Positions 15,258-59,704 of a DNA stretch of 64,000 nucleotides are shown piece after piece. The position numbers and the translations under genes were made by a program. Position 1 is the stretch's first letter, and each line of letters opens with the position of its first letter. Location: assembly GCA_963810095.1 (NCBI GenBank), contig CAWEMM010000006.1, positions 1,120,001-1,184,000 on the forward strand, written 5' to 3'. A model generated the notes under the pieces. That model saw only the letters and a list, made by a program, of their open reading frames with translations, searched no databases and was not told where the DNA came from. Source of the DNA: an uncultured Chloroflexia bacterium (lineage in GTDB: Bacteria > Chloroflexota > Anaerolineae > CG2-30-64-16).

Positions 15258-15329
15258 GGTGCTTCCTCCAAATGGGGTTATCGGGGTGCGGCGTGCGGCC
15301 TTGGGCCGCGCGCCGCACCCCTGGAAAGA

Positions 15330-31758: not shown

Positions 31759-34700
31759 TCATTGAGCGGGCTCGTCTGCGCCCCGCGGCTCGAGCGTCTC
31801 AGTTTCGACGGCCGCAGCAGGCTCGGCGTCGGCCGCGGCCGCGGCCGCTCCGCCCGCTTGGCGGACAGTGGCGAGGAACAGCGTGCTTCGGTCGATGATC
31901 TGGATGCTGTCCACGTAGCTCCAGGTGTTGTATTTGTTGTCGGGGCGGCCGTTCTGCGGCCCGTTGCAGTTGGCAAACACCAGCTCGCCGTGCTTCCCCG
32001 CATACTTCTCGAGGTCGAGGTCCATGATCCGCCATCCCGTGTCGTACAACTGGCGGTACTTGCTCGTCGGATTTCCCGTGCGGAACAGGTACGCTGCGGG
32101 CTGCCCGTCCTCGACGAACTTCACATCGAGCGTGTCCACGTACGAGTGCAGGTAGTCGCTGTACATCACGTCGTAAGTCAGCACCCGGTACCAGAATCGC
32201 AGGGTCGGATGTCGCACCTGCTCCAGGCTCGGAATCGTGATCTGTTGGTGGATCGATCCGCAACCGGCAGGCACCGCGCCCGGCGGGTCGAGGCTGGGCC
32301 CATACCTTTCGCTCCCCAGCTGGGCCGCCAGGGTCGACACGCTGCCCGGCCCGGTCGTCCCCACCACGCCCGTGTCGAGCAGGTCGTCTACGCCTCGGCT
32401 CCAATCCGGCGGCAAGACCCCGGGGTTATCGAACCCCCCGTTCAACACGGGTTGGACCAGGACGCTCAGGTTCCCGGGCGCAACCTGGCGGTTGCCCGCA
32501 CGATCGCGGCCGTAGACCCGGAAGAAATACGTGTGTCCGCGCTGTCCCGTGAACTGTGCAGACATCAAGCGCGTCTGCTCGAGCCAGTTCTGCCACGGGC
32601 CATCATAGCCGTCGCGGACCTGTACGTCGTAGCTGGCCAGTCCCGAGCCTTCGCGCGGGTCGCCGCCGGTCCAGCTTACGTCAAACTGGGTGCTCGTCAC
32701 GGGCGGCTGCGGCCCTGAGAAGCTCGTCTGGGGTGGCGTCTGGTCGATCGCCACCTCAAACACATGCGCAATTTCGGCATTGCCTGCCCGGTCTTCCGCC
32801 CAAATGCGCACCGTGTGCCGGCCGTCGGTCGAGACCACGAGGGTCGATGCGGTCTTCAGCGTGTTGGGTGGAAAGTGAGCCGGGGCCGAGGACTGCACGG
32901 GGCCGTTGTCGATTTGGTAGTGGATCGCGAGCAGGCCAGATGCAGCGTCGGCAGCAGACATGTCGAAGGTCACCGGTTCGACATACCAGCCGTTCAACCC
33001 TGAAGCGGCCGTAGGTGTAATGACAGTTACAGGTGGGGTGCCATCGTACCATACGCTGTCGCTGATCGCAACCGCCGTCGCAGCGTTTGTGTTGCCTGCT
33101 CCGTCGCGTAGCCACAGGTAGGCCGAGTGGCGGCCCTCGCCAGGCGCCTTCACGCCGTTGATTTCGGTGGAACCCTCGTAGAACGTGCCGTCAGCGCCGC
33201 TGGTGGGCGGGGCGTCGAACTTGACATACGCGCCGCCGATCCCCGATTGGTCCCCCATGCTGGGCCACTCGAAGTGGAAGCTGTTGAAGCGGGTCCAGCC
33301 CTGCGGCGATACCAGTACGGCCGTGGGCGCGGGCGGCGCCGTGAAGTCGAGGCGCACCGTGTATTGCTGCGGCGCCTCGACGTTGCCGGCAACGTCTTCA
33401 GCGTAGTAGTCGAGAACATGCTTGTCGGCCTGCGTCACGGGAATAGTGACGGTGTTCTTCGTCACCACCTGCCACGCGCCGCCATCCAGCCGGTAGTGCA
33501 CCGCCGCGACCCCCGAAGCGCCATCCGTCGCGGTCAGCACGACCGAAACGGGCGAGAGCCACCAGCCGCCCACCCCTTGCTGCCCTTGCACCTGCACGCC
33601 GGTTACGGGCGCGGTCGCGTCGTAGCGCAGGACGGGGCTGCTCGACGAGGGCGCGAGCCCCGGGGGCCGTCTTCTGGTCCGCATTCCCCGCCGCATCGCG
33701 CAGCCACAGGTACAGGCGATACGCGCCTTCAGCCGGGACCGCCAGGCCGTCGATCCGCTGGGTCTGCGAGATCACAAGCCCGTCTTTCGGGCCGGCCGGC
33801 GCACCGCCGCCCGATAGGTCGCCCAGCTTGACGTACGCGCCCGTCACGCCGCTGAGGTCGTTGGGGCTCGTCCATTGGACATTGAAGGAGTTCGTGCGGC
33901 TCCAGCCGGCGGGCGCCGCGCTGAACCCGGCAGGCCCGGCCGGCGCAGCCGTGTCGAGCTTCACCTGGGTGACCGTCGTGGCCCCCACGTTTCCCGCCGC
34001 ATCGGTGGCATAGTAGGCCAGGTCGTAGACGCCGTCGCCCGCGAGCGGGAACTGCGTCCCTGTCTGCCAGGCGCCGCCGTTGATCTTGTAGCGCGTGGTG
34101 GCGATCCCCGCACCGTTGTCCTGGGGCAGCAACCGGACCGTGACATTCGAGACGTGCCAGCCGTTCTCGCCCACAGTCCCGTCGACAGCCTGCCCCGTGA
34201 CGGGAGGCGTCGCATCGACGTGTGCTTCCACCGCAACCAGTTTCGACCGGTTGCCGGCCGCGTCCTGCCCGTAATACTCGATGCGATACGAGCCTTCGGC
34301 GGCGAGGGTGAACGTTGCCGGGGCCGACAGCGGGCCCTCTTGCCAGGGTCCGTCGTTGAGGCGGTAATAGCCCCGGGGCCCACCTGAGGTCGTGTCGACG
34401 ACCGACAGGGTGTAGGTCACGGCGGCCGTGTACCAGCCGGTAGAGTTGGGAAGGCGGTCCGCTTGCAGGGTTGTGGTGGGCGCGGTCTTGTCGACGCCAA
34501 AGGCGAAGACCTTGTCCGGCTGCTCCAGGTTCCCTGCCCTATCGTGTGCACGATAGCGCAGCTGGTGCGGCCCTTCTGTGCTGACCGTCAGCAGCTTTGG
34601 CGCGGGGGTCCAGGGCGAAGTGTCGAGTTGGTAGTCCACTGCGGGCGGATAGGCCGGCTCTACGGGGAGGTCGGTGACGGTGAAGCTCATGGCGACGCTG

Positions 34701-35912
34701 CCCGTGTACCATCCCGTAGCCGGCAGTGTCGGCGTAAAGATCGAGGAACTGACCGGCAGCGTGCCGTCGTACCAGAACACGTTCGGATCGCCCATGGGGT
34801 ATTCCGAATTTACGTTGCCGGCCGCATCGACGAGCCAGACATAGAGATCGTGGACGCCGTCCCCGGGGACGTGAATATCGGTAATGGTGTTGCTCGTCTT
34901 AACGTACGTCCCGTCCGTGGCCGACGTCGGGGGCGTGTTGAGCTTATAGTAGGCGGCGGCAATGCCTGACAGGTCGGTCGGGTTGCGCCACGTTTCGGAG
35001 AAGCTGTTGACGTTGGTCCACTGGCGGGCAGGCGAGCCAACGGGACGGGTGGGTTGGTCTGGGGCGGTCGTATCCCAGTAGACCGTAGTGCTGGTGGCGC
35101 TTGCCGGGTTCGCCCGGCCCAGCTTGTCCTGCAGCCACACGTAAACCGGATGCGCGCCGTCGTCGACCCCCGGCGTGCCGGGCGTAATCCCTGCGATGCT
35201 GGTGGACGTCATCACGAACGTGCCGTCCGTAGGGGAAGTAGGGGCCGAGCCCACCTTGTACCAGGCGCCGGCAATGCCGGCCGCATCCCACGGATTGGTC
35301 CACGAGACTGTGAAGCTGCCCGCGTTCGTCCAGCCTTGCGGGTTGGCCGTCAGGTTCTCGGGGGCTGCCGGCGCCGAGCCGTCGACGCGCAACAGGTAGG
35401 GCAAGCTGACGGACTCCGCGCCGCCCGTCTCGACGGTGCGAAAGCGAATGTAATTAAGGCTGGCGGAGTCAGGCAGGGCAAGGCCCGCCACCACGATGTT
35501 GTGGGTGGTGGAAACCGGAATGCCCACCGTCAGCCCATCCGTCGACCACGCGCCCCAGGTCGCGCCGCCGTCTTTGCTCAGGGCGTAGGCGTCGGTCAGC
35601 GGCTCCAGGCCCGCAGGGGAGGTGGCCTGAATGGCACTGGTGAAGGGCACGGCCGTCACCCAATCGGCGGGAGCGAAGGCGCCCCACGTGACCGCCTGCG
35701 CCGCACGTGCCGCGCCACCGTGGCCGCCTTCGGGCACGGAAGCCAGGACCCCGGGGGCCGGGGCCGCCAGAATGAGCAAGAACACGAACGCGGCGATCAG
35801 GCGCCGCAGTCTCGGTGTGAAAGGGTTGAACTGGGGACCGCCGGCGGTGCGCAGCCCGGTGAAGCGCGGCCGAATCGGGGCCGCCGGCGTTATCGCTCAG
35901 TACGGGGGACAT
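31759..35912 (-). CDS. large secreted Ig-like repeat protein (OmpL47/Big-like and FnIII-like modules); frameshifts near 35840 and 33660
   Basis: Signal peptide (RRLIAAFVFLLILAAPA), repeated D.T.P and D.AGN motifs, GW[YHW] modules. ORFs 33398..35785 and 31759..33696. Confidence 0.8.
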
Positions 35913-38282: not shown

Positions 38283-38378
38283 TAAAGGTTAAATCTAGCT
38301 TCGCGCAATTCTGGCGATTAACGGATCCTCGTGCGGCGAGCAGTCGCCCGCGGGACCGGCCGATCAGGAGGCTACACG

Positions 38379-40263
38379 ATGACTGACGAACCCCGTACGG
38401 CAGAGAGTGCCGGGACCGGCGCGCCCCAGACGATGGAGTTCCGCGCCGAAGTCCAGCAGCTGCTCAATATTCTGGCCCATTCGCTCTACACCGAGCGCGA
38501 GATCTTCCTGCGCGAGCTCATTTCGAACGCATCCGACGCACTGCACCGCGTGCAATTCGAGATGCTCACGAATCGCGACGTGCTCGACCCGGAGGCGGAG
38601 CTGGCAATCCGCATCGAGTCGGACCCGGTCGCGCACACGCTCACGATCTCAGACACCGGCATCGGCATGACGCGCGACGAGCTGATCGAGAACCTGGGCA
38701 CCATCGCACACTCGGGCGCGCTGGCCTTCATGCAGAAGATCGGCGAAGGGCAGAAGCCCGTCGATATTATCGGCCAGTTTGGCGTCGGCTTTTATTCGGT
38801 GTTCATGGCCGCCGACGAAGTCGTGGTCACGACGCGCTCCTACCGGCCCGGGTCTGAAGCCTGGCGCTGGACCTCGCACGGCGGCAGCCGCTTCACGCTG
38901 GAGCCCGCCGAGAAGGAAAACCGCGGGACCGAAGTCCTGATCAAGCTGAAGGAGGACGCGCAGGACTTCGCCGACTTCATGGCGGCTCGAGAACATCATC
39001 CGCCGCCATTCGAACTACGTCTCGTTCCCGATCTACCTGAAGGGCGAGGTCGTCAATCAGCGCACCGCCCTGTGGCGCACGCCCGCCCGCGACGTCAAGC
39101 CGGAAGAGTACGACGAGTTCTACCGCCAGCTCACGCTCGATCCCGAGCCGCCGCTGCTGCACACCCACATCATCACCGACGCGCCCGTCGAGATCCGTGC
39201 GGTCCTCTTCGTGCCGCGCAAGGTCGACCGCGGCGTCCTGAGCCTGCGGTCGGATTACGGCCTGCGCCTCTACTCGCGCAAGGTGCTCATCCAGGAGCAC
39301 AACAAGGAGCTGCTTCCTGAGTACCTGCGCTTCGTCGAGGGCGTGGTCGACTCGGAGGACATCCCCCTGAACGTCTCGCGCGAAACCGTGCAGAGCAACC
39401 GGGTCCTGCGAGCGATGCAAAAGGTGCTGGCAGGCCGGGTGGTCAAGGTGCTCAACGAGCTGGCAGCCGAGAAGCCGGAGGAGTACGAGGCCTTCTGGAA
39501 CGAAATGGGGGTGTTCATCAAGCAAGGCGTGGCCATGGGTGCGGGCGAAAAAGACGAGCTCCTCACGCTGCTCCGCTTCACCTCGACGCGCTCCGAGGGC
39601 AAGCCGGTCGCGCTGGTCGACTACGCGGGCCGGATGGCCGAGGGACAGGACGAGATCTACTACCTGCTCGGCAGCGATCCGCTCTCCGTCGCGGCCAGCC
39701 CCCACCTGGACCCCTTCAAGGCGCGCGGGCTGGAGGTGCTGCTGCTGGCAGACCCATTCGACGGGTACATGATGCAGAGCGTGCACGAGTTCCAGGGGAA
39801 GAAGCTGCACAACGTGGACGACCCGGGGCTGACGCTGCCGGGCGAGGCCCCGACGCAGGCGGAAGAGTCGGAACCCGTGACCGACGCGGACTGGGCCGCG
39901 GTGGTGGCGCGGTTCAAGACCGTGCTGGCCGATCGGGTGACCGAGGTGCGCGAGTCACAGCTGCTGACCGGCAGCCCCGCGCGCCTGGTCTCGACCAACA
40001 CGGGCTTCGAGCGCGAGATGCAGCGCGTGCGCCGGCTCGTCGAGGACGACTACAAGGCGCCGCCCAAGATCCTCGAGCTCAACCGCCGCCATCCGTTGGT
40101 GCGGAACCTGGCCGCCCGGATTGCGGCGGAGCCGGCGGCGCCTGTCATCGACCCTGCCATCGAGCTGCTATTCGACAACCTGTTGCTGCAGGAGGGCCTG
40201 CACCCGAACCCGGCCGGCATGGCGCCGCGCATCCAGATGATGCTGGAGCGTGCGACGCGGTAG
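38379..40263 (+). CDS. htpG: Hsp90 chaperone HtpG; frameshift near 38975
   Basis: [71 protein letters not shown]. Confidence 0.96.
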
Positions 40264-40275
40264 GGCCGAACTGAT

Positions 40276-40362
40276 CTAACCGCAAAGTCACAAAGACTCG
40301 AAGGCTACCAGATTGTTTAAGCGTCTTCGTGGGCCTTCGTGTCCTGGTGTCTTTGTGGTTAG
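40276..40362. repeat. REP-like imperfect inverted repeat built from ~9-bp AAG/CTT units (family A)
   Basis: CTAACCGCAAAG...CTTTGTGGTTAG between convergent genes. Related copy at 48978-49050. Confidence 0.65.
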
Positions 40363-40374
40363 CGCCAACCCACG

Positions 40375-43300
40375 TTATGCGACCGCCCGCCGCAGCCGCG
40401 CCACCTGCGCGGCGTGTTCGGCCGCGCCCGGCGCGCCCGTTTCCTGTTCGTACTCCACCGCCACCTGCATGACCTCAGCCGCCCGGCCCAGCTGGCCGGC
40501 GCGCTGCAGCAGCATCCCCAGCATCCACGAGTGGCGCGCCCGGCTGGCCCGGTCGCCCAGCTCGCCGTAGATTTCCACGGCCTGGCTGTACGCATCCACC
40601 GCCCGCCGCGTTTCCTCGATCTCCATCAGCGCCAGCCCCAGGTTCGCCAGCCGGTTGGCTTCCTTGCGCCGTTCGCCCAGCGCCCGGCTGATCGACACAG
40701 CCTGGCGGTAGCAGTCGACTGCGGCTTGCATGTTATTCATTTCCGCGTGCGCGTTGCCCAGGTTGTTGAGGGTGTTCCCCTCCAACGCTCGGTCGCGGGT
40801 CTCCCGGCTCACTTCCAGCGCCTTCGTGTAGAAGTCCAGGGCATCCTTCGGCATCCCGAGCTGGGCCGACGCATTGCCCAGGCTGTTCAGCAGCCCCGCC
40901 TCGGTGCGCCTGTCGCCCACCGCCCGGCACAGGAACAACGCCTGCCGGTAGCAAACCATCGCTTGCGCGTGGTCCCCCATGTCAGCGTAGGCATCGCCGA
41001 GCGTGCGCAAGACCGGCGCCCGGTTGGGCCAGGATACAACGGCCCTGGCGGCGATCATTGCGTGCTCGCCGTAGTGAATCGCCTGCTTCGTGTCACCCGC
41101 ACTCGCATACAACATGGCCAGCTTGCCCGAGAGGTCGGCTTCGGCCGGATGATCTCCGCGCTGCAGGGCCAGCTCGAGCGCCTCGTTGTACGTCCGCAGA
41201 GCGTCGTCCGGCCGGGCGTTGCCGGCGTAGACGTCGCCGAGCCGCTGCATGACTTCCGCCCGGCCGTCCTTGTCGCCTGCTGCGTCGAGCAGCCCGAGGG
41301 CAGCCTCGTACGTGGTCGCAGCTTCCTCGCCCTTGCCCGATCCCGCGCACGCTGCGGCCAACGTGCGCAGCACTGCAACCTCGTTTTGCCCGTCGCCCAG
41401 GTCCCGCAGCAGCGCGACCGCCGCCCTGTACCCTTCGACCGCCTGGTTCGCTTCGCCCGCGGCCATCCACGCATCGCTCTGCGCAATCAGGATCTTCGCC
41501 TCGGTGGCCGGCTCGTGCCGTTCCCGGCTCAGGGCCAGCGCGCTACGGTAGCAGTCGGCCGCCCGCCGCGGCTCGTGCAGCCGGCTCGCCACGGGCGCCA
41601 GGCCCAACAGCAGGGCCAGCTCAGCCCCCTTGTCGCCAAGCTCGCGGGCCACGGCCAACCCCTGGTCGTAGTGCCGGGCGGCTTCGACGTTCTCGCCCAT
41701 GGCGGCCTCGGCATCGGCCAGCCGGCGGAGCACGATCAGCTCGCGCGGCTTGTCGTCCACCTGGCGCAGGAGGATGAGCGCCCAGCGGTCGTTTTCCACG
41801 GCGGCCACAGTGTCTCCCAGGGCAATGCTCAAGCTGGCGAGCCCATAGCGTGCTTCCGCCTGCGCAGCCCGGTCGCCCAGTTCCTCGGCGAGCCGCAGCG
41901 CACGGGCATACCCGGCCACGGCCGCCGCGGGATCGACCGGTGCGTCGCGTTCGGCCAGGGCCAGCCGCGCGGCCAGCTCGCCTGCCCGGTCGCCACATTC
42001 GCTGCTGACGGCCAGCGCGACCGGCATCGAAGCGAGGGCCAGCTCGCGCTGTTCGTTCGTGGCCGCGGCCGGATAGAGCCGGAGCGCCGCGGCCGCCTCA
42101 CTCTGCTGGTCGCCGAGCGAGCGGGCCAGGGGCAGCGCATCTTCCAGGTACGCGGCCGAGGATGCGGCCCGCCCCGTCTCCCCGTCGCCCAGAAGCGAAG
42201 CCAGCGCCATCAGGGCGGCCAGTTCCGCCGGCCCATCCCCGAGCTCCCGGCTCAGCGGCAGTGCGGCCCGATAGTGGTTCGTCGCGGCCGGCAGCTTGCC
42301 GGCGGCCTGTGCGCTCCGGCCCAGCCCGACGAGCGCCGCCAGCTCGTGCACCCGGTCCTGCACGCTGCGCGCCAGCGCGAGCGCTTTCCGATAGGCTTCG
42401 GCGCAGCGGGGGATGGAGCCGAGCGCCGCCTGGACCTGTGCGAGGCCGAGCCATCCTTCGAGTTCCTCGCCGGGCAGGCCGCGTGCATGCGCGAGTTCGA
42501 TCCCGGCACGGTAGGTGTCTGCCGCCGCGGGGGCGTTTCCCAGTTGGAACTGGGTGGCGGCGAGCGAGAACTGCACCCCCGTCACCTCGCGCACGTCGCC
42601 CGCGTCGAGCAGTGTGTCGAGGGCTGCGCGGTACGCTTCCGCAGCTGCTTCCAGGTCGCCTGCCGCCACATCGAGCTTGGCCAGCCCGGCCCGTGCCAGC
42701 CCCGCCCCGCGCTTTTCGCCGGCTTCCTCACCCGCGGCCAGGGCGTCGACGAACCGGCGCCGCGCGAGCCCGTCCTCGCCGCCGGCCGCAGCCCCGGCCC
42801 CGAGCGCCAGAGACGACCAGCACACGACACGCCCGTCTCCTGCCGCCCGGCCCGCCTGCAGGGCCGCTTCGTAGGTCTCCCACCCCCGTTCACGCTCGCC
42901 CGTTCCGGCGTAGACTGCCGCCAGCCCCATGAGCGCGTTCGCCTCGACCCCCGTATCTCCTGCGCTGCGGGCCAGCCCCAGGGCCCGCTCGTGCTCGGCC
43001 GTTGCATTGGCGAAGTTGCCCGCCGCCAACTCCAGCGCGCCCAGCAGGTTGTGAGCCTGGCCTTCCAAGGCAGGGGCAGCCGGGCTCAGGCCGGCGGAAA
43101 TCGCGATCACCTGCTCCAGGCAGGCTCGCCCCGGTTCCGCTTCGCCCCCAGCCAGGTGCGCCTGGCCCCACGCCAGCAGCGCCGCAGCTTCGCCGGCCCG
43201 GTCCCCCTGGTCGGCCAACAGCCCCCACGCCTCCTGGTATGCGCGCACCGCTTCCGCATACGCGGCGGCCCGGTGTTGGTTGCGGCCCACGCCGAACAGG

Positions 43301-46300
43301 GCCGCGGCCATGTGCTCGCGATCGTCCATCGCCCGGCAGGCCTGCACCCACTCCTCGTATGACCGGATTGCGCCGGGGATGTCATTGCTCGCTTCGGCAG
43401 CTTCGGCCAGCAGGCGCAGCGCGGCCGCTTCACGGCGGCGGTCGTTGCTCGACCGCGCCAACGCCCGGGCTTCTTCGTAGCATGGCTTTGCCTCGTCGGG
43501 CAGCCCGCGGGCCGCCAGCGTCTCGCCGCGGCGCACCAGGACGTCGGCCGTTGTCGCGGAGTCGCCGGCCGCCCGGAGCAGCGGCAGCGCCTGCTGGTAA
43601 GCCAGCTCCGCCTGCCCCAGGTGCCCCTGCACACGCTGAGCCTCTGCCACCCGCAGCAGGGCCGCGCCTTCGATGTCCGCCCGCCTGTTCAGTTGGGCGA
43701 GTGTAAGGGCCTGCTCCGCCGCCTCTGAAGCGCCGGCAATGCGGCCGCCGTCTGACAAAGCCGCCGCCAGCCCCAAGAGGGCGTTCATTTCGGTCTCGGG
43801 CTGCCACAGCAACCGGGCAGCCGGCAGCGCCTGCTCGAAATACGCCGCCGCGCAGGCCGCTTCGCCCGCGGCCACGCATGCCTCGCCCAGGCGCGTCAGG
43901 AGCAGCAGTTCGCGCGGCCCGTCGGCAGCTTCTCGTGCGGCGGCCAGGGCCTCGCCATAACTCTCGATCGCGGCCCGCGGCCGCCGGGCGGCCATCTGCG
44001 CCTCGCCCAGGTGTATGAGCAAGCTGAGCGCCTCGGGATTGTTTCCCGACAGGCGGGCGGCTGCCGACGGCAGCGGCATATGCGTCGCACGCCTCGGCCG
44101 GCTGTCCGCCGGCGAGCGCCAGCCCGCCAAGCGACCGGTACGCGGCGACAGCCGTCCCGTGATCGCCCTGCGCGGCAGACAGCGGCGCGGCCACCCGATA
44201 CTCGGCGGCGGCGTCGACCCCGCGCCCGGTCCGTTCGTACCCGCGCGCGAGCTCCAGGTGGACATCGCGCTCTGCGGCCGGGTCGCCGGCCAGGTGGACC
44301 GGCTCGACCGCCCGGGCCAGGCTCGCCAGCGCCTCGGCGTCCTCGCCCATCTTCGCCTGCACGAGCGCAAGTGCGCAGAGCACCATGGCTTCGGCGCCCG
44401 CATCGCCGACCGCCCGGGCCTGCTCGAGCGCCAGATCGTACTCGCGCTCGGCCGCGGCCAGCCGGCCCTGGCGCTGATTCAGTTCCGCCAGCTCGAAATG
44501 CAGCGCGCCCGACGCCCCCCGGTCGCCCGCAGCGTCGACCAACGGCAGCGCCGCGGCGTAGTGTGCGGCCGCGGCCTCCAACTCGCCGCGCTCCGCCGCG
44601 GCGTCGCCCAGGTGCTGCAGCAGCGCCGCCTCGACCGACCGGTCGCCGAGCGCTTGAGCGAGGGCCAAGGCGGCAGAATAGGCCGCCTCGGCCGCGTCGA
44701 ACTGGGTTGCGGCATCGTGGGCAGCCCCCAGGTGCAGCAGGGCTGCGAGTTCCTCCGCCCGGTCCCCACGTTCACGGCTGGCCGCGAGCGCAACGTCGGC
44801 GTACTGCAGCGCATCGTCGGTCCGCCCGGCTTGCCGCTCCAGGTCGGCGAGGCGAAGGACCAGGTCGAGACGCGCGCCGGCAGCCCCTCCATGCACGGAC
44901 GCAGAACGGCCCTCCGCGGCCGCGCTTTCTGAGAGCTGGAGCGCCCCGCGCAGGAAGGTGATTGCTTCGTCGAGTTGGCCCTTCGCCCGGTGGCAGTCCG
45001 CCAGGCTGGTTAGGAGATCGCGCTCCACATCCGGGTGCCGCAGCGCCCGGCTCAGCTGCAGGGCCGCTTCAAAACAAGCCGCTGCCAGGTCAGGACGCTC
45101 CGTAGCGACGTGAAGGTCGCCCAGTTTGCGCAATGTGTCCAGCTCGATCTCGGCCTGGCCCAGTTCGCCGCGCGATCGGCAGCGCGCTCTCCAGACATTC
45201 GAGGCCAATGCCGCACAGCCCCAGTTCCAGGTAGGCCCGCGCCAGGTCCCCGAGCACCTGCAGTTCGACCGGCCGCGTGCCCCCGGCGCGGGCAAGGGGC
45301 AAAGCTGCCCCCAGGTCGACCAGCATCGCCTCCCAATCGCCGGCGTCACCATGCGCCCCGGCGACAACCCGCAGCGCGCGCAACTCCGCGTCCCGATCGC
45401 CCAGGCGCCGTGCCAGGGGCAAAGCCGACTCGGCCGCGAGCGCGGCTGCGGCCGCCTGGCCCGCGGCTGCGAGCGCGTCGGAGAGTAAGCACCGGGCCCG
45501 CAGCTCGGTCGCCTCGTCGCTATCGGTCATGGCGACCGCGAGCGCCCCTTCGAGCGTGCCGAGCGCATCCTCGCACTGCTCCGCCTCCAGATAGGCACGC
45601 CCGAGCCCGCACAGGATCGGGCCCTCGCGCCGGGTAACTCCCACGTCGCGTGCCAGCTTCAGGGCCGCGGTATAGTGTGCGATGGCTTCGCCCGGCGCCG
45701 TGTCCACGCACACGTCGCCCAGTTCGCCCATCAACTCGGCCTCGAGACGTGTGTCGTCGACCCGCTCGGCCAGCAGCACGGCCCGGCGGTAAGCTTCAGC
45801 CGCAGGGCCGGCCGCGCCATAACGCCCGGCGGGCAGCGAACCCTCCAACCGTGCGACCCGGCACAGCGCGTCCAGTTCCGCGTATGGGTCGCCAAGTCGC
45901 CTCGCGCAGGCTGCCTGGTCCGCCAGGAGCCGCCGCACTGCGAGGGTATCGTCCCCCGCCGTCCGGGCCGCCCGGAGTTGCTCCAGCGCACTTAGCTCGA
46001 AGCGCGCATCTCCCGAGGCCCGTGCTGAGACGAGGGCCTGCATCAGTGGCTCGACCGCCGCCCCATAATCCCCGTTCCCGTTAAGCGCCGCGCCAACCCG
46101 CAGTTGAGCGAGCCCAATGGCACCCGGATCACCGGTCTCCTGCGCAACCGCCGCGGCCTGGCGGGCCACCCGCAGGGCCGCGCCCGGCTGCCCGAGCTCG
46201 AGCTTGACTTCAGACAACGCCGCCAGGTGCCGGGCCTCCCAACGGCCGCGCCCCGGCGCCGGCGCGGGTCGCAGCGCCTGCTCGAGCCACGCCTCGCGCA

Positions 46301-47294
46301 GGCTGGGCGGCGCAACCAGGGCCAGCAGCCGCGGCGCCGCGCCGGCAAATGCGTCGACTGCGGCCCGCCCGCGCAGGTCGTCCCGGCTCGCCAGTTGTTC
46401 CCACGCAGCCGAGACCTGCAGCCAGTTCTCTGCGTAACGGTCGAGCGCGGCGCCCGCCGCCGGGCCGCCCCCGCCATAGGTCGCTTCCAAGTCCTGGGTC
46501 AGCGCCAACACGGCTTCCGCATGACGCTGACGCACCGTGTCCGCCTCTGAGTGGGCGCCCAAGCGCCACGCGGCGTGTTGCTGCACGTAAGCGGGCAGGA
46601 ACAGGTCCTCTGTCCAGCCGCGCATCTCGAGCACCCCGCAGCTGCAGAGCTCCATGAGCGCACGCCGGGCCCCGTCGTCCGACTCGCCCCAGACCCGGGC
46701 AACCAGGGCCGTGTCCAGCCCGCCCGCGGCAAACGCGCCCAGCATGCGCAAACGCCACTGCATGGCCGGCGCGAGCGTGTCATAGCAGAAGCGGGCATCG
46801 AGAACGAGGGTCAGTTCGTCTTCGCCGCTGGCTCCACCCCGCTCCGGCGCCGGCGTGGCCGCAGCCAAACGCCCGGCCAGCTGCCCGTCACCCGTCAGCA
46901 GCAGGGCCGCGGCGCCCCGCGGGATGAGGGTGTTGAGGACCCAGCGGGCCAGTTCTTCATCCTGCGGCTCCCCCAGGATAAAGAGCGCCCGGCCCCGGTT
47001 CTGCAGGCGTCGTTGGATGGCCCTCGTGCGCCGGTCCAGGTCGACGTCGCCTGAGGCGGCAATGCCCACCTGGCGTTCGGCCTGCCGCAGAACGGTCAGC
47101 GGGAGGACACCGCCCTGCATGTCCAGCCAGATCGCGCCGGCCGGAAACAGGTCGCCGCACGCCTCGACCGCGCTGCGCGCAAGCGCCGCACGCGTCCGGT
47201 CATCTTCGGCGCGGAGCGAAACCGCGTTCACACCGGATTGGGGCACGGCGGCGAGGAGCGCACACGCAGCCCGAATGATGGGTGAGCGGATCAT
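40375..47294 (-). CDS. giant (~2300 aa) TPR protein with degenerate NB-ARC/STAND-like N-terminus; frameshifts near 45170 and 44070
   Basis: Three consecutive TPR-bearing segments (45090..47294, 43430..45367, 40375..44403) with ~40-aa GD...EA..L..LG periodicity. AAGGAG RBS. Confidence 0.85.
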
Positions 47295-47340
47295 GGCGTT
47301 CTCCTTGGGTTGAGCAGGGTTATCCAGTATTTCCTATATC

Positions 47341-47369
47341 ATTGTAATACTATTTTTTAGTGGATGCAA
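47341..47369 (-). promoter_or_regulatory. near-consensus sigma70 promoter of the giant TPR gene
   Basis: TTGCAT-N17-TACAAT in an AT-rich patch. Confidence 0.7.
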
Positions 47370-47384
47370 GTAGGAAAAAAGGGG

Positions 47385-47421
47385 AAAAGAAAGGGAGGCG
47401 CACCCTTGCGAGGCGCCTCCC
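47385..47421 (-). terminator. intrinsic terminator after tRNA-Lys
   Basis: GGGAGGCG/CGCCTCCC stem followed by TTTCTTTT on the minus strand. Confidence 0.75.
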
Positions 47422-47434
47422 AGCAGGAAGAAGA

Positions 47435-47507
<73 letters not shown>

Positions 47508-47516
47508 AACGCCGTG

Positions 47517-47545
47517 ATGATAGCACAGCCGGGGGTGGGCGGCAA
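47517..47545 (-). promoter_or_regulatory. sigma70 promoter of tRNA-Lys
   Basis: TTGCCG-N17-TATCAT with TGn extension, 9 nt before the tRNA. Confidence 0.65.
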
Positions 47546-47547
47546 AC

Positions 47548-47584
47548 GCAGAAACCGGGTTTCTTCGAGAAACGGCGTTTCTGC
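47548..47584. repeat. REP-like palindrome, GAAACCGGGTTTC family (family B)
   Basis: GCAGAAACCGGGTTTCTTCGAGAAACGGCGTTTCTGC. Related copy at 56546-56595. Confidence 0.6.
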
Positions 47585-47589
47585 AGAGC

Positions 47590-48936
47590 TCAGCTGCCGA
47601 AATACTGCTCCACCGCGTCGGGCGCCCACTGCTCCACCACCGAGCGCGGCACGCCGTTCGACTGCGCAATGCGCCCGTAGATCGCGGCGCTTGTCCGCGG
47701 CGTCCGCACGCCCGTCGCCGGGTCCAGCTCGATCAGCCCGAAGCGCAGGTTCCAGCCCTCGGACCACTCGAAGTTGTCGACCAGCGTCCAGTGATAATAC
47801 CCCCGCACGTCCACGCCGTCCTGGATCGCGCGCCAGACCTCGGGCAGATACGTGCTCAGCACATACGGGCGCTGCTTGTCCTCCCGGTCGGGCACCCCGT
47901 TCTCCGTGATGTAGACCGGCTTGCCGTACTCCTGCAGCTTCTTCAGCGCCAGGTACATGCCCGGCGGGTTGATCTCGCAGAACGGCTGCCCGTCCGAGGT
48001 GCACTCGCACGACGCGACTTCAGGCGCATGGTACTGGCTGGCGAAAAACAGCGCCGGCTGCCTCGCGTCGAACTTGATGCGCGCCGTCGAGTAGTAGTTG
48101 AGCCCGATGTAATCGCTGGAGTCGATCAACTGGGGGACGACCTGGCCCATGCCAACCAACGGACCCAGCCGGCCGTAAGTAACCGCGTCCAGCGTGGAGC
48201 GATTCGCTATCTGGTCGAAGAACACGGCCAGGCGGCGGTCCAGCGGGTTGCGCGGGTCGGCCGGGAGGAAGTACCGCATGTGGTGGGCCAGGCCCACCCG
48301 GGCGTCGTTCTGAATGCGATGGATCGTGCGATAGGCGCGGCCGTGAGCCAGCAGCATAGTGCGCAGGACGCCCAACGCCCGGGGCAGGCTGGCCCCACCG
48401 GGCGGGAAGAGCCCCTGGTGGAAGCCGTAGAACGCATAGACGATCGGCTCGTTGATCGTGCACCACAGGTTGACCCGGTCGCCCAGCGCGCCCACGACCC
48501 GCTCGGTGAAACGCGAGAAGTAGTCGCCGATGAGCGGGTTCTCCCAACCGCCCAGTTCGCCAAGCCAGACTGGATCGGTGAAGTGGTGCAGCGTGACCAT
48601 CGGCTCGATGCCCCGCTCGCAGAGCAGCCCCACCATCTCCCCGTACTTCGCGAGCGCCCGGGCATCAAACTCGCCGGGCGCCGGCTCAATCCGGCTCCAT
48701 TCGACAGAGATGCGCAGTGCATTCAGCCCCATCTCGGCTGCCCGGTCGAAGTCGCTTGCGGCGGTTGCCAGGTCCCACCAGTTCGTGGCCTTCTCGCACC
48801 GCTGGCCCTCGAAGATGTGCCCCGGCTCCTGTTCCCACAGGTGCCAGTTGTTCGCGCGGTTATCGCCCTCGTTCTGGTGCGCCGCGGTTGCCGCGCCCCA
48901 GCGAAAGCCATCAGGAAAACGCAGAATGTCGGTCAT
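47590..48936 (-). CDS. glycoside hydrolase family 1 (beta-glucosidase-like)
   Basis: FRWGAATAAHQNEG, TLHHF, TINEP (acid/base), YITENG (nucleophile), DNFEWSEG. Confidence 0.95.
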   Translation of the reverse strand: MTDILRFPDGFRWGAATAAHQNEGDNRANNWHLWEQEPGHIFEGQRCEKATNWWDLATAASDFDRAAEMGLNALRISVEWSRIEPAPGEFDARALAKYGEMVGLLCERGIEPMVTLHHFTDPVWLGELGGWENPLIGDYFSRFTERVVGALGDRVNLWCTINEPIVYAFYGFHQGLFPPGGASLPRALGVLRTMLLAHGRAYRTIHRIQNDARVGLAHHMRYFLPADPRNPLDRRLAVFFDQIANRSTLDAVTYGRLGPLVGMGQVVPQLIDSSDYIGLNYYSTARIKFDARQPALFFASQYHAPEVASCECTSDGQPFCEINPPGMYLALKKLQEYGKPVYITENGVPDREDKQRPYVLSTYLPEVWRAIQDGVDVRGYYHWTLVDNFEWSEGWNLRFGLIELDPATGVRTPRTSAAIYGRIAQSNGVPRSVVEQWAPDAVEQYFGS

Positions 48937-52303: not shown

Positions 52304-52349
52304 AGGGGATACGCCCCGTCCGGACGGGCGTCGATCATGGAGTAGTGGT

Positions 52350-54110
52350 ATGTCTGAGAAGATCCTCGTCTGCGTCGCCTGGCCTTACTGCAACGGCGAC
52401 ATGCACATCGGCCACATCGCCGGCGCCTACCTGCCGTCTGACATCTTCGCCCGCTATCACCGGCTGGCGGGGAACGACGTGCTCATGGTCTCCGGCTCCG
52501 ACACACACGGCACGCCCATCACCGTGCGCGCCGAGGAGGAGGGTATCTCCCCGCGAGGTGGTGGACCGCTACCATCCCCGCAACGTGGAGATGATGCGGC
52601 AGTTGGGGATCAGCTTCGACCTGTTCACCGAGACCGACACGGAGAACCATTGGGCCGTCACCCAGGAGATGTTCCTCGAGCACCTCAAGAACGAGGTCGT
52701 CTACAAAGACAAGATGCCCCAGCTCTACTGCGTCGACTGCAACAAGTGGCTCGCCGACCGCTACGTGGAAGGCACTTGCCCCCATTGCGGCTACACCGGC
52801 GCGCGGGGCGACCAGTGCGACAACTGCGGCCGCACCTACGACGCCATCGAGCTGATCAACCCCCGCTGCAAGTACTGCGGCGGCTCCAACATCGAAGTGC
52901 GCGAGACCGAGCACTTTTTCCTCGACCTCGGCGCGCTGAACGACCCGCTCCTCGAGTGGGTCACCAGCGGCGCCAAGACGCACTGGCGGCCCAACGTCTA
53001 TAACTACACCGTTTCGCGCCTCGCCACCCACGAACTGCACGGCCGGCCGATCACGCGCGACCTCACGTGGGGCGTCACGATTCCGCTGCCCGGCTACGAG
53101 AACAAGCGCATCTACGTCTGGTACGACGCGGTAATCGGCTACCTGTCCGCGTCGAAGGAGTGGGCCGGCGGTCGTCGGCCGGCCCGAGGCGTGGCGCGAG
53201 TGGTGGAACGACAAGGACGCCCGCACCTACTACTTCATCGGCAAGGACAACATCGACTTCCACACCATCATCTGGCCCGGCATGCTGATCGGCTACGGCC
53301 ACGATTTGAACCTGCCCTACGACGTGCCGGCCAACGAGTACCTGAACGTCGAGGGCCGCAAGCTCTCGCAAGAGCCGGCGCTGGATGATCGTCATGGGCG
53401 ACGTGCTCGAGCGGTACGCGCCCGACCCCTGGCGCTACGCGCTCTGCGCCAGCATGCCCGAGAGCACGGACGTCAACTTCACCTGGGAAGAGTTCGTCCG
53501 CCGCAACAACGAGGAGTTGGTTGCGACCTGGGGCAACCTGGCGAACCGGGTGCTGGGCTTCGCATTCAAGCGCTACGACGGCAAGGTGCCCCAGCCCGGC
53601 TCGCTCAACGCCGACGACCAGGCCATGCTCGACGCGATCCAGCCGGCGTTCGACAAGGTCACGGCCGCACTTGAGGCCGTGAAGCTCAAGCTGGCGCTGG
53701 GCGAGGCGATGGCGCTGGCGCACGAAGCAAACCGGTACCTGAACGTCAAGGAGCCTTGGAAACAGATCAAGACCGACCCCGAGGCCGCGGCCACCAGCGT
53801 GTTCGTCGCCCTGCGGGTCATCGATACGCTCAAGACGCTCTTCGCGCCGTTCCTGCCCTACACCTGCCAGGCGCTGCACGAGTACCTGGGCTACGACGGG
53901 CAGTTGTTCGGCAGCGTGTACACCGAGACGCTGCACGAGACGGAGCGCGAACACCTCGCGCTGCGCTATGACGCGACCGGCGCGAAGGGGTGCTGGTCGG
54001 TCAGCGACCTGCAGCCGGGCCAGCCTCTCCGCGAGCCCAAGCCCCTGTTCCTCAAGCTCGAGCCAACGGTTGCCGAGGAAGAAGTCGAGCGAATGGCAGC
54101 CGGCGCGTGA
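52350..54110 (+). CDS. metG: methionine--tRNA ligase (two Zn knuckles, no C-terminal OB domain); frameshifts near 52550, 53170 and 53375
   Basis: [21 protein letters not shown], four Cxx[20 protein letters not shown] motif, [11 protein letters not shown]. Confidence 0.95.
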
Positions 54111-54976: not shown

Positions 54977-54994
54977 AAGGTCGATCCAAAGGCG

Positions 54995-56026
54995 ATGACC
55001 GAATTTTTCGCTCCAGAGATACGAATTTACGACGGCCCGGGCAAGGTTATGATCGACAGCTACGGCCGCCACTTGCACTATCTCAGGGTCTCCTTGACCG
55101 ATGCCTGTAATCTGCGCTGCGTGTATTGCATGCCGGAGGACATCCGCTTCCGGCCGTTCGCCACGTTGATGCAGGACGACGAGATTCTGACCCTGGTGCG
55201 CGTCGCGGCGAGCCTTGGCGTAGACAAGATCCGGCTGACCGGCGGGGAACCGACCATCCGTCACGGCGTCGTAGACCTGGTGCGGGCGATCAAGGGCCTT
55301 CCCGGCATCGAGCGGGTGGTGATGACCACGAACGGCGTCAAGCTGGACGAGTTGGCCGAGCCGCTGGCGCAGGCGGGCCTGGCACAGGTCAACATCAGCA
55401 TCGACTCGCTGGACCCGGAGAAGTTCCGCCGCATTACCCGGCGGGGTGACCTGGACGACGTCTGGCGCGGCATCGCCGCGGCCGAGGCAGCCGGCCTCCT
55501 GCCGATCAAGCTCAACTGCGTCGTGACGCGCGGCTTTAACGACGACGAGGTGGTGGAGCTGGCACGGTTGTCGCTGCGTAACGATTGGGAAGTCCGCTTC
55601 ATCGAGTTGATGCCGCTGGGCAGCGTCGCAGACTTCCAGGAGCACCAGGTTGTGCCGTCGGGCGAGACGAAAGCCCGCATCGAAGCGGCGCTTGGCCCGC
55701 TCGAGGTAGTGCCGGGTCACAACGGCCACGATCCCGCGCACTCGTATCGCCTGCCCGGTGCGACCGGCCGGCTCGGCTTCATCAGCAGCGTGAGCGAGCC
55801 GTTCTGTGCCGGGTGTGACCGCCTCCGCCTGACCGCGGACGGCAAGCTACGGCTTTGCCTGCTGCGCGACGACGAGGTCGATTTGCTGACACCGCTGCGC
55901 GCCGGCGCAGATTTCGATACCCTGCGTCAACTGATGGCCGACGGCGCCTACCATAAACCGTGGGGCCACCGGCTCGAACAGCACGACATCGCCACATCCC
56001 GCGAGATGAGCCAGATCGGCGGGTAA
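54995..56026 (+). CDS. moaA: GTP 3',8-cyclase MoaA
   Basis: YLRVSLTDACNLRCVYCMP, RLTGGEP, RFIELMP, FCAGCDRLRLTADGKLRLCL, C-terminal MSQIGG. Confidence 0.96.
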   Translation: MTEFFAPEIRIYDGPGKVMIDSYGRHLHYLRVSLTDACNLRCVYCMPEDIRFRPFATLMQDDEILTLVRVAASLGVDKIRLTGGEPTIRHGVVDLVRAIKGLPGIERVVMTTNGVKLDELAEPLAQAGLAQVNISIDSLDPEKFRRITRRGDLDDVWRGIAAAEAAGLLPIKLNCVVTRGFNDDEVVELARLSLRNDWEVRFIELMPLGSVADFQEHQVVPSGETKARIEAALGPLEVVPGHNGHDPAHSYRLPGATGRLGFISSVSEPFCAGCDRLRLTADGKLRLCLLRDDEVDLLTPLRAGADFDTLRQLMADGAYHKPWGHRLEQHDIATSREMSQIGG

Positions 56027-56039
56027 GTTACTTGTGTCT

Positions 56040-56087
56040 TTCCGTGCTGTGGTTTGGCGGCCTGGGCCGCCAAACCACAGCACGGAA
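56040..56087. other. long perfect hairpin between moaA and iscA/erpA
   Basis: TTCCGTGCTGTGGTTTGGCGGCC / GGCCGCCAAACCACAGCACGGAA (23-bp arms). Confidence 0.7.
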
Positions 56088-56123
56088 GAAATGCGCATTA
56101 ATCCGAGTTTGAGGGAGGATCTC

Positions 56124-56534
56124 ATGTCGGTTGAAGTTGAAACAATCGAGACCATGGAAGCGACCGAGGTCATTAACCTGACCGAGGCCGCGGCCGAGAA
56201 GCTAGATGGAATCATGCGGGAAAAGGGCGTCCGCGAGACGCATGCCCTGCGTGTGTTTGTTAGCGGCGGCGGCTGCAGCGGGCTGCAGTACGGGATGACC
56301 TTCGACCCGGCCCCGCGCGAAATCGACACCGTGGTAACGCAGCACGGCATGCGCGTCGTCATCGACCCGCAGAGCCTGCAGTACATGGGCGGCAGCACGA
56401 TCGACTACGTCGACAGCCTGATGGGCGGCGGTTTCCACATCGAGAACCCGAACGCCGTGTCGGCTTGCGGTTGCGGCCAGTCCTTCAAGACTAAGGACCA
56501 GGCCGGTTCGGGCGGCTGCTCGAGCTGCCACTAA
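56124..56534 (+). CDS. A-type Fe-S carrier (IscA/ErpA/HesB family)
   Basis: GGAGG RBS, LRVFVSGGGCSGLQY, IDYVD, NPNAVSACGCGQSF. Confidence 0.95.
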   Translation: MSVEVETIETMEATEVINLTEAAAEKLDGIMREKGVRETHALRVFVSGGGCSGLQYGMTFDPAPREIDTVVTQHGMRVVIDPQSLQYMGGSTIDYVDSLMGGGFHIENPNAVSACGCGQSFKTKDQAGSGGCSSCH

Positions 56535-56545
56535 TCTCTGACCTT

Positions 56546-56595
56546 AACAAACCGGGTTTCTCCAAGCGACAAGGTCGCACGAAACCCGGTTTGTT
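56546..56595. repeat. REP-like palindrome (family B)
   Basis: AACAAACCGGGTTTC...GAAACCCGGTTTGTT with inner GCGAC/GTCGC stem. Confidence 0.65.
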
Positions 56596-56615
56596 TGCGC
56601 TAAGCAGCATCGCCT

Positions 56616-58073
56616 ATGAAGCCCGTCACCCGCGCCGATATCCGCCAGGTCGGTGCTAACCTGTACCAGATTCCCCAGGACTTTCGGCCCGACATGCGCG
56701 TTCCGGCGCACTTTTACGCCGACGAGGGGTTTCTATCGGCCGCGCTCGAAGATCGCTCGCTCGAACAGCTGGTCAACACGGCGACGCTGCCGGGGGTGGT
56801 GGGCCAGGCGATGGCCATGCCCGACATTCACCAGGGCTACGGTTTTCCCATCGGCGGTGTCGCCGCCACCTTGCTGCCCCATGGCGTCGTCTCGCCCGGG
56901 GGGGTGGGTTACGACATCAACTGCGGGGTTCGCCTGCTCGCGTCCAACTTGACGAGCGGCGACGTGCGCCCCTACCTGCCCATGCTCGCCGACGCGCTCT
57001 ACCGCCACCTGCCCTCGGGCGTGGGGGTGAAGGGGCACCTGCACACGAACAAGACGGAGCTCGAAGGCATCCTGGCCGACGGCAGCCAGTGGGCCGCCCG
57101 GGAAGGCTATGCCCGTCCCGAAGACGTCGTCCACACGGAGGAACGCGGCCGCATGGCCGGCGCGAACCCGGACAAGGTCAGCAAGGCGGCCAAGGAGCGC
57201 GGACTCGAACAGGTGGGCACGCTCGGCTCGGGCAACCATTTCGCCGAGATCGACGAAGTCACGCAGGTTTTCGACGCCGAGGCTGCCGCAGCTTTCGGAC
57301 TGCGCAAGGGGCAGGTCGTCTTTCAGATTCACTGCGGAAGCCGGGGGCTGGGCCACCAGGTCGCGACCGATTACATCGAGAGCTTCCAGCGTGCGTCGCG
57401 GAAGTACGGCTATGATCTGCCCGACCGCCAGCTAGTGTGCGCGCCCCTGGACTCGCCCGAGGGCGAAGCGTACCTCGCCGCCATGAACGCCGCCGCAAAC
57501 TATGCATGGGCTAATCGCCAGGTGCTGACCTACCATGCGCGCGAAGCTTTCGAGGAAGTGCTTAGGGGCAAGGGCGTAGATGGCGATTTGCGATTGCTGT
57601 ACGACGTAGCCCACAACATGGCCAAGGTCGAGACGCATGCGGTTGGCGGCAAGCAGCAGCAGGTGTGCGTTCACCGCAAGGGCGCGACCCGGGCGTTCGG
57701 CCCCGGTCACCCCGACGTGCCCGAGGATTACCGCCCGCTCGGCCAGCCGGTGTTGGTGCCGGGCAGCATGGGCACCGCATCCTACGTGCTGGTCGGCACG
57801 GCCGGCGCGATGCAGCACACCTTCGGCTCCTGCTGCCACGGCGCCGGCCGCACCCTGAGCCGCGCCGAAGCCAAGCGCCAGGTGCGCGGAGACGCGCTGC
57901 GCGGCGAGCTCGAGCACGAGGGGATCGTCGTGCGTGCGGGCAGCCTCGCGGGGCTGGCCGAAGAAGCGCCCCAGGCGTACAAGAGCATCGACCGGGTGGT
58001 CGCCGTGGTCGAAGCAGCGGGCATTGCCAGAATCGTCGCCCGCGTCGAGCCGCTGGCCGTCATCAAGGGATAA
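56616..58073 (+). CDS. rtcB: RNA ligase RtcB (long, archaeal-like type)
   Basis: [66 protein letters not shown]. Confidence 0.96.
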
Positions 58074-58084
58074 TACCGGGAGAA

Positions 58085-58131
58085 ACCATTGAGGTCGCCT
58101 GACCGGTGGTCAGAGTGGCGACCTCAATGGT
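58085..58131. other. hairpin between rtcB and the first radical SAM gene
   Basis: ACCATTGAGGTCGCC / GGCGACCTCAATGGT arms with inner TGACC/GGTCA stem. Confidence 0.65.
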
Positions 58132-58157
58132 CTTGAGAGCCGGTCCAGGAGTGAGCG

Positions 58158-59634: not shown

Positions 59635-59704
59635 GTCTCTTCGCGTAAGGGCGCGGCCACCGGCACCGGTCGCCGCGCCCCCCAGAGAGACATGGAGGAA
59701 ACCT

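Follow-up and report, generated by a model that had tools for sequence, protein, structure and literature searches.

We analyzed a 64,000-nucleotide stretch of DNA (hereafter, the window) from an uncultured Chloroflexia bacterium (contig CAWEMM010000006.1 of assembly GCA_963810095.1), and in particular one giant gene at 40375..47294 on its minus strand. With its two one-base shifts corrected for, the gene has ~2,305 codons, and its stop codon is at 40375-40377. From the N-terminus, it encodes a degenerate nucleotide-binding domain (NBD; amino acids 1-150; 46845..47294), a short linker (amino acids ~151-170; 46785..46844), a winged-helix domain (WHD; amino acids ~171-250; 46545..46784), another helical domain (HD2; amino acids ~251-345; 46260..46544), and an array of ~45 tetratricopeptide repeats (TPRs) with a period of 40 amino acids (amino acids 352-2285; 40444..46241), all on the minus strand. 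The first 350 amino acids are a true, degenerate derivative of the NB-ARC module of STAND NTPases, in the order NBD-linker-WHD-HD2. A first-pass annotation of the window, made from the sequence alone, had described the gene in similar terms and had proposed that its product works in trans with an active partner.

Searches with standard domain models gave little. Pfam and NCBIfam found TPR-type matches only, and no NTPase model, in the three fragments of the gene that are annotated in the window. In the N-termini of six orthologs, Pfam gave weak matches to AAA_22, NB-ARC, or AAA_16 in one or two only; NB-ARC (PF00931) matched 1 of the 6, at E = 0.0065, and did not score the window protein, even in a scan of its own genome. 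A search of PDB sequences with a six-row N-terminal profile returned nothing usable (best E = 0.54). We also built a family profile from the first 260 amino acids of 6 orthologs and compared it to 1.84 billion representative proteins. This profile matched 985 proteins at E ≤ 1e-3, including 88 at E ≤ 1e-10. The seven matches at E ≤ 1e-30 (P0004-P0010) are members or fragments of the same family, and some weaker matches are family fragments as well (for example, P0018). We scanned 25 non-family matches, chosen by rank or because they matched in a single stretch, and all 25 had Pfam's NB-ARC above the cut-off. TPR_12 arrays are present in most of them as well, and several carry EAD1/5/7, TIR_2, CHAT, Trypsin_2, methyltransferase, or DUF4062 domains at the N-terminus. 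One of the family matches, the 132-amino-acid protein P0008, is identical to the window protein up to about amino acid 125 except for four substitutions, and then continues into an unrelated tail; its source is probably the same species, represented by a second assembly that is also error-prone.

To locate the motifs, we used an alignment of 26 rows (A3) that combines the family with active NB-ARC homologs. All of the peptides that the first-pass annotation had assigned to eroded NB-ARC motifs fall at the assigned positions, so the claim that the first ~300 amino acids follow the NB-ARC order held up. Numbered along the translation of 45090-47294, these are AVSLRAEDDRTRAALAR at amino acids 24-40, FPAGAIWLDM at 50-59, RALFILGEPQD at 102-112, LLLTGD at 131-136, FCYDTLAPAMQWRLRMLGAF at 169-188, and LPAYVQQHA at 233-241. 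FPAGAIWLDM aligns to the strand that follows Walker A (FPGGvlWL), and FCYDTLAPAMQWRLRMLGAF aligns to the winged-helix motif SYxxLxxxxQxRFRxLGvF; the WHD has a conserved QWRLRxLGAF motif. The catalytic and switch residues are gone. Where the active homologs have the Walker A motif GxxGxGK[ST], the window protein has RAEDDRTR, without the lysine. At Walker B, LLVILDD is replaced by ALFILGEP, without the aspartate; at sensor-1, LLTTRD is replaced by LLLTGD, without the arginine. At the MHD-like site in the WHD, the active homologs have LHD or LHP, the window protein has LPA, and its orthologs have LEP, LTP, or AGR, so the histidine is gone too.

A whole domain is also missing. Between the NBD and the WHD, active STANDs have the helical domain HD1 (or ARC1), with its GLPLAL motif. 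All 110 of the 110 non-family matches that cover both halves of the module have 55-108 extra residues at this place (median 78), compared to just 4-24 residues in 3 family members, and HD1 is missing from every family member. In the window protein, the linker stands at this place, as a gap in A3. The first-pass annotation's suggestion that the helical domain was deleted is thus borne out. By comparison, GK[ST] is kept in 125 of 126 non-family matches, and the sole exception is a fragment of the HD1-less family. The module is not preceded by anything else: in every ortholog, residue 1 lines up with the ATG at 47294, so that the protein begins directly at the NBD, and upstream of the ATG lie a promoter-like block, a hairpin, and a tRNA gene. 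This agrees with the earlier statement that there is no N-terminal effector. Judging by the alignments, HD1, all of the catalytic and switch residues, and a fused effector are absent from the window protein's N-terminus.

The predicted structure of the module points to the same relatives. We modeled amino acids 1-350 with AlphaFold2 (AF2), using A3 as the input alignment. The model has a predicted local distance difference test score (pLDDT) of 89.1 and a predicted template modeling score (pTM) of 0.87; the linker at ~150-170 has low confidence (pLDDT of 51-54). The NBD has the expected β-α-β order. Foldseek's best match for the model was ADP-bound Apaf-1 (E = 8.9e-7, TMq of 0.54), followed by NRC4, Dark, ZAR1, the archaeal STAND-TPR protein 6mfv, NRC2, CED-4, and MalT. 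In pairwise comparisons (VIA), residues 127-540 of closed murine Apaf-1 (3sfz) matched 314 of the model's 350 residues with Z = 18.1 and a root-mean-square deviation (rmsd) of 4.2 Å, and it was this alignment that identified the helical domain after the WHD as the equivalent of Apaf-1's HD2. Resting NRC2 gave Z = 16.5 and an rmsd of 3.9 Å over 236 residues, and MalT gave Z = 16.5 and an rmsd of 5.1 Å over 290 residues. For activated apoptosomes and resistosomes, either the rmsd was 13.8-19.6 Å or only the NBD fit. If the NBD alone is superposed on NLRs, the rmsd is 2.6-3.3 Å over 144-151 residues. So the N-terminus does resemble P-loop STANDs in structure, as the first-pass annotation had predicted, and the module was modeled in a resting-like packing.

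The rest of the protein is repeats. An iterated in-house hidden Markov model (HMM) gave 48 domain matches in the window protein, of which ~44-46 are credible, and 44-47 in the orthologs, which confirms the ~40-amino-acid repeat array that had been noted before. Pfam's TPR_12, TPR_1, and TPR_2 also match the array; in the C-terminal fragment, TPR_12 scores 1.9e-72 and TPR_1 scores 1.4e-35. Different parts of the array are just ~28-34% identical to each other, which implies that the array is old and was not recently expanded. Family members have ~2,300 amino acids, compared to at most 1,682 among the 150 matches that were listed. This is among the longest TPR arrays that are joined to an NB-ARC. 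The last 500 amino acids are the most conserved part of the protein: compared to the three full-length orthologs, it is 35-45% identical at the N-terminus, and this figure climbs to 78-85% in the final 200 amino acids.

The family is restricted to one genus. It is present in 6 of the 7 other genomes from the same genus, and among 33 further genomes (17 from the same family and 16 from the same class), we found one weak partial match (E = 1.9e-5) and nothing else. Across the lineages of the family, the motifs are in four states. L004 and P0004 have GGPASGKT at Walker A, LDD at Walker B, and TRD at sensor-1. G005 and G006 have GAGAS at Walker A, IDD or IDE at Walker B, and TRD or ARD at sensor-1. 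G004, G007, and P0007 have an SDSRA-type Walker A, LDG or LDS at Walker B, and ADD or TSD at sensor-1. The window protein, G001, and P0006 have a DDRTR-type Walker A, LGEP or LAEP at Walker B, and TGD at sensor-1. HD1 and the MHD-like histidine are missing from all four lineages, including the one that keeps GKT. When the tree is rooted on three relatives that have HD1, the family forms a single clade (99/98), in which the lineage with GKT is the sister group of all the others (86/86). Since one lineage without HD1 still has GKT, DD, and TRD, the motifs probably eroded after HD1 was lost; we infer from the sequences that the loss of HD1 came first.

Selection constrains the degenerate NBD, although more weakly than the repeats, and constraint is strongest in the C-terminal TPRs. 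We computed dN/dS by the NG86 method for three pairs of genomes. For G005/G006, dN/dS was 0.27 for the NBD, 0.47 for the WHD, and 0.12 for the TPRs. For G004/G007, the corresponding values were 0.26, 0.43, and 0.17. For the window's genome (G000) and its closest relative (G001), dN/dS was 0.33 for the NBD, 0.29 for the whole N-terminal domain, and 0.18 for the TPRs (the C-terminal 574 codons). The NBD is thus under the purifying selection that the first-pass annotation had anticipated (0.26-0.33 across the pairs), and because of this selection, the degenerate NB-ARC cannot be seen as a relic that is drifting neutrally. The first-pass annotation had also said that intact Walker motifs in the orthologs, combined with neutral evolution of this copy, would speak against its reading. 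Of these two, the first turned up, in the form of the GKT lineage, but the window's lineage is not neutral.

One explanation for selection on the NBD (dN/dS of ~0.3) is that its remnant still binds a nucleotide in a non-canonical way, or binds some other small ligand, and that this still gates the protein. The retention of GKT, DD, and TRD in one lineage would fit. However, in the window protein, the P-loop has become acidic (EDDRTR), and the Walker B aspartate, the sensor-1 arginine, HD1, and the histidine are all missing. We consider residual gating by a ligand to be highly improbable.

In the assembly, the gene does not appear as a single open reading frame (ORF). It is split over three overlapping frames on the minus strand: 45090-47294 (734 amino acids); 43430-45367, of which the first ~440 amino acids are meaningful; and 40375-44403, which is meaningful from about amino acid 125. 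Intact orthologs of 2,282-2,289 amino acids from three genomes of the same genus are collinear with the gene through all three frames. Depending on the ortholog, the tblastn alignments span nucleotides 1 to 2127 or 2136 of the gene, 2129 or 2132 to 3196, and 3228-3276 to 6917. The first break, at 45167 on the minus strand (nucleotide 2128 of the gene), is one surplus base between ...ALPIAR and ELGQAEIE.... The second, at ~44065 on the minus strand (nucleotide ~3230 of the gene), is a net gain of one base between ...AYAAAV and AAARLSGNNPEA..., and the exact base is uncertain within ~25 nucleotides.

If both frameshifts are real, then the gene is a pseudogene in this bacterium and at most fragments of the protein are made. 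Besides the three frames themselves, two observations favor this. First, the copy in G001 has at least 8 frame changes. Second, we compared the gene region to public sequencing contigs from 4 of 7 runs (whose word shares were small, at 0.06-0.14, and among which no RNA run was listed), and none of these contigs, which are short and of low depth, spans either break with 31 letters on each side (the closest one ends at 44064). The unbridged breaks count against our view that the gene is intact. But apart from the two shifts, the gene has no in-frame stops, and the 40-amino-acid register of the repeats and the alignment with the orthologs run unbroken across both junctions. The dN/dS values for G000/G001 (0.18-0.33) do not suggest a pseudogene either.

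Furthermore, essential genes are broken in the same way. The assembly of the window's genome has 16 contigs and 88.5% completeness. Its rpoB and rpoC (contig C14, 146935-155374) are frame-split: rpoC lies over at least 3 frames, changes frame at least 4 times, and contains internal TGA codons, and rpoB changes frame once. Within the window, methionyl-tRNA synthetase (MetRS; 52306-53385 and 53346-54107), HtpG (38331-39320 and 39211-40263), and two B12-binding radical-SAM genes (58155-61198) are split across frames, and the rate of indels is roughly one per 10 kb of assembly. In the many-contig assemblies, the copies of our gene that we read are uninterrupted ORFs (complete in three genomes, and cut off by the end of the contig in two), while the copies in the low-contig assemblies G000 and G001 are broken. 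This pattern fits indel errors from long reads. Given that rpoC, rpoB, MetRS, and HtpG are broken likewise, both breaks are probably assembly errors rather than signs of pseudogenization, and we view a true pseudogene as very unlikely. Because indels are so frequent in this assembly, any call of a pseudogene in it needs a read-level check. More broadly, a gene whose frame is broken in a low-contig metagenome assembly should not be taken for a pseudogene.

The gene is predicted to be transcribed from its own conserved promoter. Upstream of the ATG on the minus strand, a promoter-like, AT-rich block at 47335..47370 has TTGCAT (47369-47364) and TACAAT (47346-47341) with a 17-nucleotide spacer. 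These hexamers match the consensus at 8 of 12 positions, and a scan for consensus promoters did not call them (it found just the promoter of the tRNA, at 47545-47517). For these reasons, the description of the promoter as "near-consensus" was an overstatement. The promoter itself stands, in that it is conserved across genomes: TTG and a TATTACAATGATATA..AATACT block are invariant in five genomes whose proteins are ~40% identical, and the block is also present, with one mismatch, at the locus L021, where the neighborhood is different. In all, the block is conserved in 6 genomes, two of which have the gene in another neighborhood. The ribosome-binding site that had been proposed is also there (the Shine-Dalgarno sequence AAGGAG at 47301..47306 of the minus strand, 6 nucleotides before the ATG).

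In the window and at L013, L019, L020, L021, and L023, a 45-nucleotide AT-rich block around the -10 hexamer, which is shared across the genus, is far better conserved than the protein that is encoded downstream. The conserved stretch runs past the -10 and is partly palindromic, so a role as an operator or leader element is conceivable. We considered whether the conserved 14-mer of the promoter might mark a regulon, and rejected this, as the 14-mer is unique in the genome at 0-1 mismatches (at 2 mismatches, there are 3 unrelated sites).

The gene is parted from the upstream unit by a terminator-like hairpin with a T-rich run (47391..47407, minus strand), which lies after a gene for tRNA-Lys(UUU) at 47433-47508. 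The tRNA has its own promoter-like site upstream, and it was the only match to Rfam in 40000-48000. A GH1 gene is upstream of the tRNA, at 47590-48936.

We also examined the neighborhood of the gene for possible partners, in 41 ORFs of the window (9 + 32) and in 18 flanking ORFs from four related loci. In the window and at L019 and L020, uracil phosphoribosyltransferase, cytidine deaminase, and GH1 are upstream of the gene. HtpG is tail-to-tail with the gene in the window and at L020, and an HtpG-like ORF is downstream of it at L013 (L019 ends within the gene). At L021 (4864-8547) and L022 (2463-6239), the gene is instead directly downstream of, and on the same strand as, a GAF histidine kinase and a LuxR-type response regulator, so a regulatory link with this two-component pair is possible in that lineage. 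None of the downstream ORFs that we scanned at L021 and L022 had a match in Pfam, and none is HtpG.

In eukaryotes, TPR co-chaperones work with Hsp90, and HtpG is a homolog of Hsp90, so the protein might be an adaptor that cooperates with its neighbor. The proximity of the two genes in the window, at L020, and perhaps at L013 would fit. However, the genes are convergent, which means that they are not co-transcribed, and HtpG was not seen beside the gene at L021 or L022. The C-terminus of the window's HtpG (...MMLERATR) has no acidic, EEVD-like tail, and the whole block looks like housekeeping synteny. We give this adaptor hypothesis very little credence.

Alternatively, the protein might be a dead sensor or decoy whose TPR array detects a ligand and which passes the signal on via a STAND or CHAT protein that is active and is encoded elsewhere. 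This is close to what the first-pass annotation had in mind when it compared the protein to paired sensor NLRs. The lack of an effector and the dead NBD are consistent with this idea, and so are the nearest active relatives, whose N-terminal EAD, TIR, or CHAT domains are typical of conflict systems. Filamentous bacteria are reported to be rich in STAND and CHAT genes, and there is no shortage of possible partners: above the cut-off, the window's genome has 1 NB-ARC, ~22 AAA_16, 10 CHAT, and 2 NACHT matches, all of them outside the window. There are also precedents in defense contexts, going by the available portions of two papers: inactive STANDs (PMC7159879) and Avs8, which has degenerate Walker motifs (PMC13581612).

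On the other hand, none of the neighborhoods that we read has a linked STAND, CHAT, or other candidate partner. The neighbors are housekeeping genes or, at two loci, the GAF kinase and the LuxR-type regulator. The family profile found no paralog of the family in the window's genome. So although a search of the genome does turn up STAND and CHAT genes, as the first-pass annotation expected, none of them is in the window or linked to the gene, and pairing of the kind seen in NLRs is not borne out. If HD1 and the switch residues are absent, co-assembly via the NBD would be mechanistically hard. The strong conservation of the C-terminal TPRs is unlike the sensors of an arms race. Finally, PADLOC reported only generic TPR models (PDLC01169 and PDLC01171) and one weak match to PDLC01078 (24-26 bits) in the C-terminal TPRs; none of its Avs models matched. 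Overall, we judge a trans-acting sensor to be unlikely.

Elsewhere in the window, a long block on the minus strand (105-25843) carries polysaccharide genes. It includes several glycosyltransferases (GT1/GT2), methyltransferases, a deacetylase, a Polysacc_synt_3 flippase, PMT_2, an LPG_synthase_TM protein, and a fusion of radical-SAM and epimerase. At 10173-15329 are two large proteins of the SdrD_B/BNR surface type. Two overlapping minus-strand ORFs at 31762-35896 have Big_13 Ig-like domains and are probably one large surface protein that was split by another indel. At 54977-63007, a MoaA-like gene and several B12-binding radical-SAM genes are clustered with RtcB (56604-58070).

The explanation that we favor, and which we consider fairly probable, is that the protein is a TPR scaffold or sensor that works independently of nucleotides. 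It would be a single cytoplasmic protein of ~2,305 amino acids, descended from the bacterial NB-ARC-TPR branch of the STAND NTPases. In STANDs, HD1 (ARC1) helps to hold the nucleotide and serves as a hinge. In our proposal, the ancestor lost this domain, and then the Walker A lysine, the Walker B aspartate, the sensor-1 arginine, and the MHD-like histidine would have decayed, lineage by lineage. The remaining NBD-WHD-HD2, modeled in a resting-like packing, most likely caps the long TPR solenoid as a fixed structural element. The protein would then function by binding other proteins, independently of nucleotides, through the TPR array and especially through its highly conserved C-terminal 500 amino acids, and its role would be that of a scaffold or a standing sensor. 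A canonical ADP/ATP switch with ring assembly is very unlikely, because HD1 and all of the residues that hold or sense the nucleotide are absent. By the same token, the protein likely neither binds nucleotides nor switches by oligomerization.

Several considerations weigh against this explanation. The alignment that we gave to AF2 contained 15 active NB-ARC homologs, and AF2 often favors closed states, which weakens the resting-like geometry. The loss of nucleotide binding is deduced from the motifs, and expression from sequence features. For G000/G001, dS is ~1.2, which is near saturation, and both assemblies are error-prone; also, NG86 is rough when GC3 is ~0.85. One lineage of orthologs (L004/P0004) retains GKT, DD, and TRD. 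And "scaffold" says little about the ligand.

A bolder interpretation, which we regard as speculative and rather unlikely, joins several claims about this lineage of filamentous Chloroflexota. The family would be a natural decay series of the STAND switch, and its members would be constitutive, effector-less receptors that hand signals to unlinked STAND or CHAT executioners. As part of this doubtful joint claim, an NB-ARC-TPR receptor would have become a giant TPR machine that works free of nucleotide, through an ancestral deletion of the HD1 hinge. Erosion would then have proceeded stepwise, from GKT/DD/R to GAS/DD/R to SR/DG/D to TR/GE/G, and, just as tentatively, selection would have maintained the fold of the NBD as a structural or regulatory cap. 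If all of this were true, the family would be a bacterial counterpart of the networks of sensor and helper NLRs, rather than of linked pairs.

How does the nucleotide-independent scaffold or sensor that we favor compare to known systems? STAND and NLR proteins are defined by a nucleotide-driven switch. The window protein is most like the bacterial NB-ARC-TPR STANDs (PF00931 with TPR_12; matches P0011-P0153, AfsR-type regulators, and 6mfv), with which it shares the order NBD-WHD-HD2-TPR, homology at the level of profiles (up to E = 1e-30), the WHD motif, the 40-amino-acid period of the TPRs, and the fold. It differs from them in that HD1/ARC1 is deleted; that GK[ST], the hhhhD of Walker B, the sensor-1 arginine, and the histidine are lost; and that it has no N-terminal effector or adaptor. 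Its TPR array is 2-3 times longer than theirs (among the matches that were listed), and unlike theirs, its NB-ARC receives no score from Pfam.

Some paired sensor NLRs of plants do not depend on their own P-loop for their action. The window protein resembles these in having a degenerate P-loop in a receptor-like STAND. However, the genes for plant NLR pairs are linked head-to-head and encode a full NB-ARC, including ARC1, while the window's gene has no linked partner and no ARC1.

Among bacteria, the iSTAND proteins of the MoxR-vWA ternary systems have a STAND core that is inactive in catalysis (Kaur et al. 2020, eLife; PMC7159879). As they are described in the available part of that paper, they share with our protein the inactive core and an origin in bacteria of multicellular habit, but they are set apart by their MoxR and vWA genes and their N-terminal effectors or EADs: our gene has no such neighbors and no such N-terminal domain. 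The neighborhood does not support membership in the iSTANDs, as there is no MoxR (AAA_3) or vWA among the 41 window ORFs or the 18 flanking ORFs that we scanned. KpAvs8 is an antiviral bacterial STAND with degenerate Walker A and B motifs and a TPR-type sensor, going by the accessible part of its source (PMC13581612), and in these respects it is like the window protein. Avs proteins, as described there, have effectors and are found in defense contexts (PMC13581612), unlike the window protein, which is effector-less and has no Avs match in PADLOC. As far as we checked these two partially available sources, neither iSTANDs nor KpAvs8 combine deletion of HD1, lack of an effector, and a housekeeping context. 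The literature that we searched does not describe an HD1-less NB-ARC-TPR family, although the clade tables of PMC13581612 could list one.

Overall, this family is an unusual variant of the known NB-ARC-TPR class and is not new in kind. What sets it apart is that it deleted a hinge domain and then lost every residue of the switch, yet the fold of the NBD is under purifying selection. The sister lineage that keeps the motifs offers a comparison for what an NBD does once nucleotide binding is lost, and the series as a whole lets one ask if effector-less bacterial STANDs act as lone scaffolds or feed unlinked helpers.

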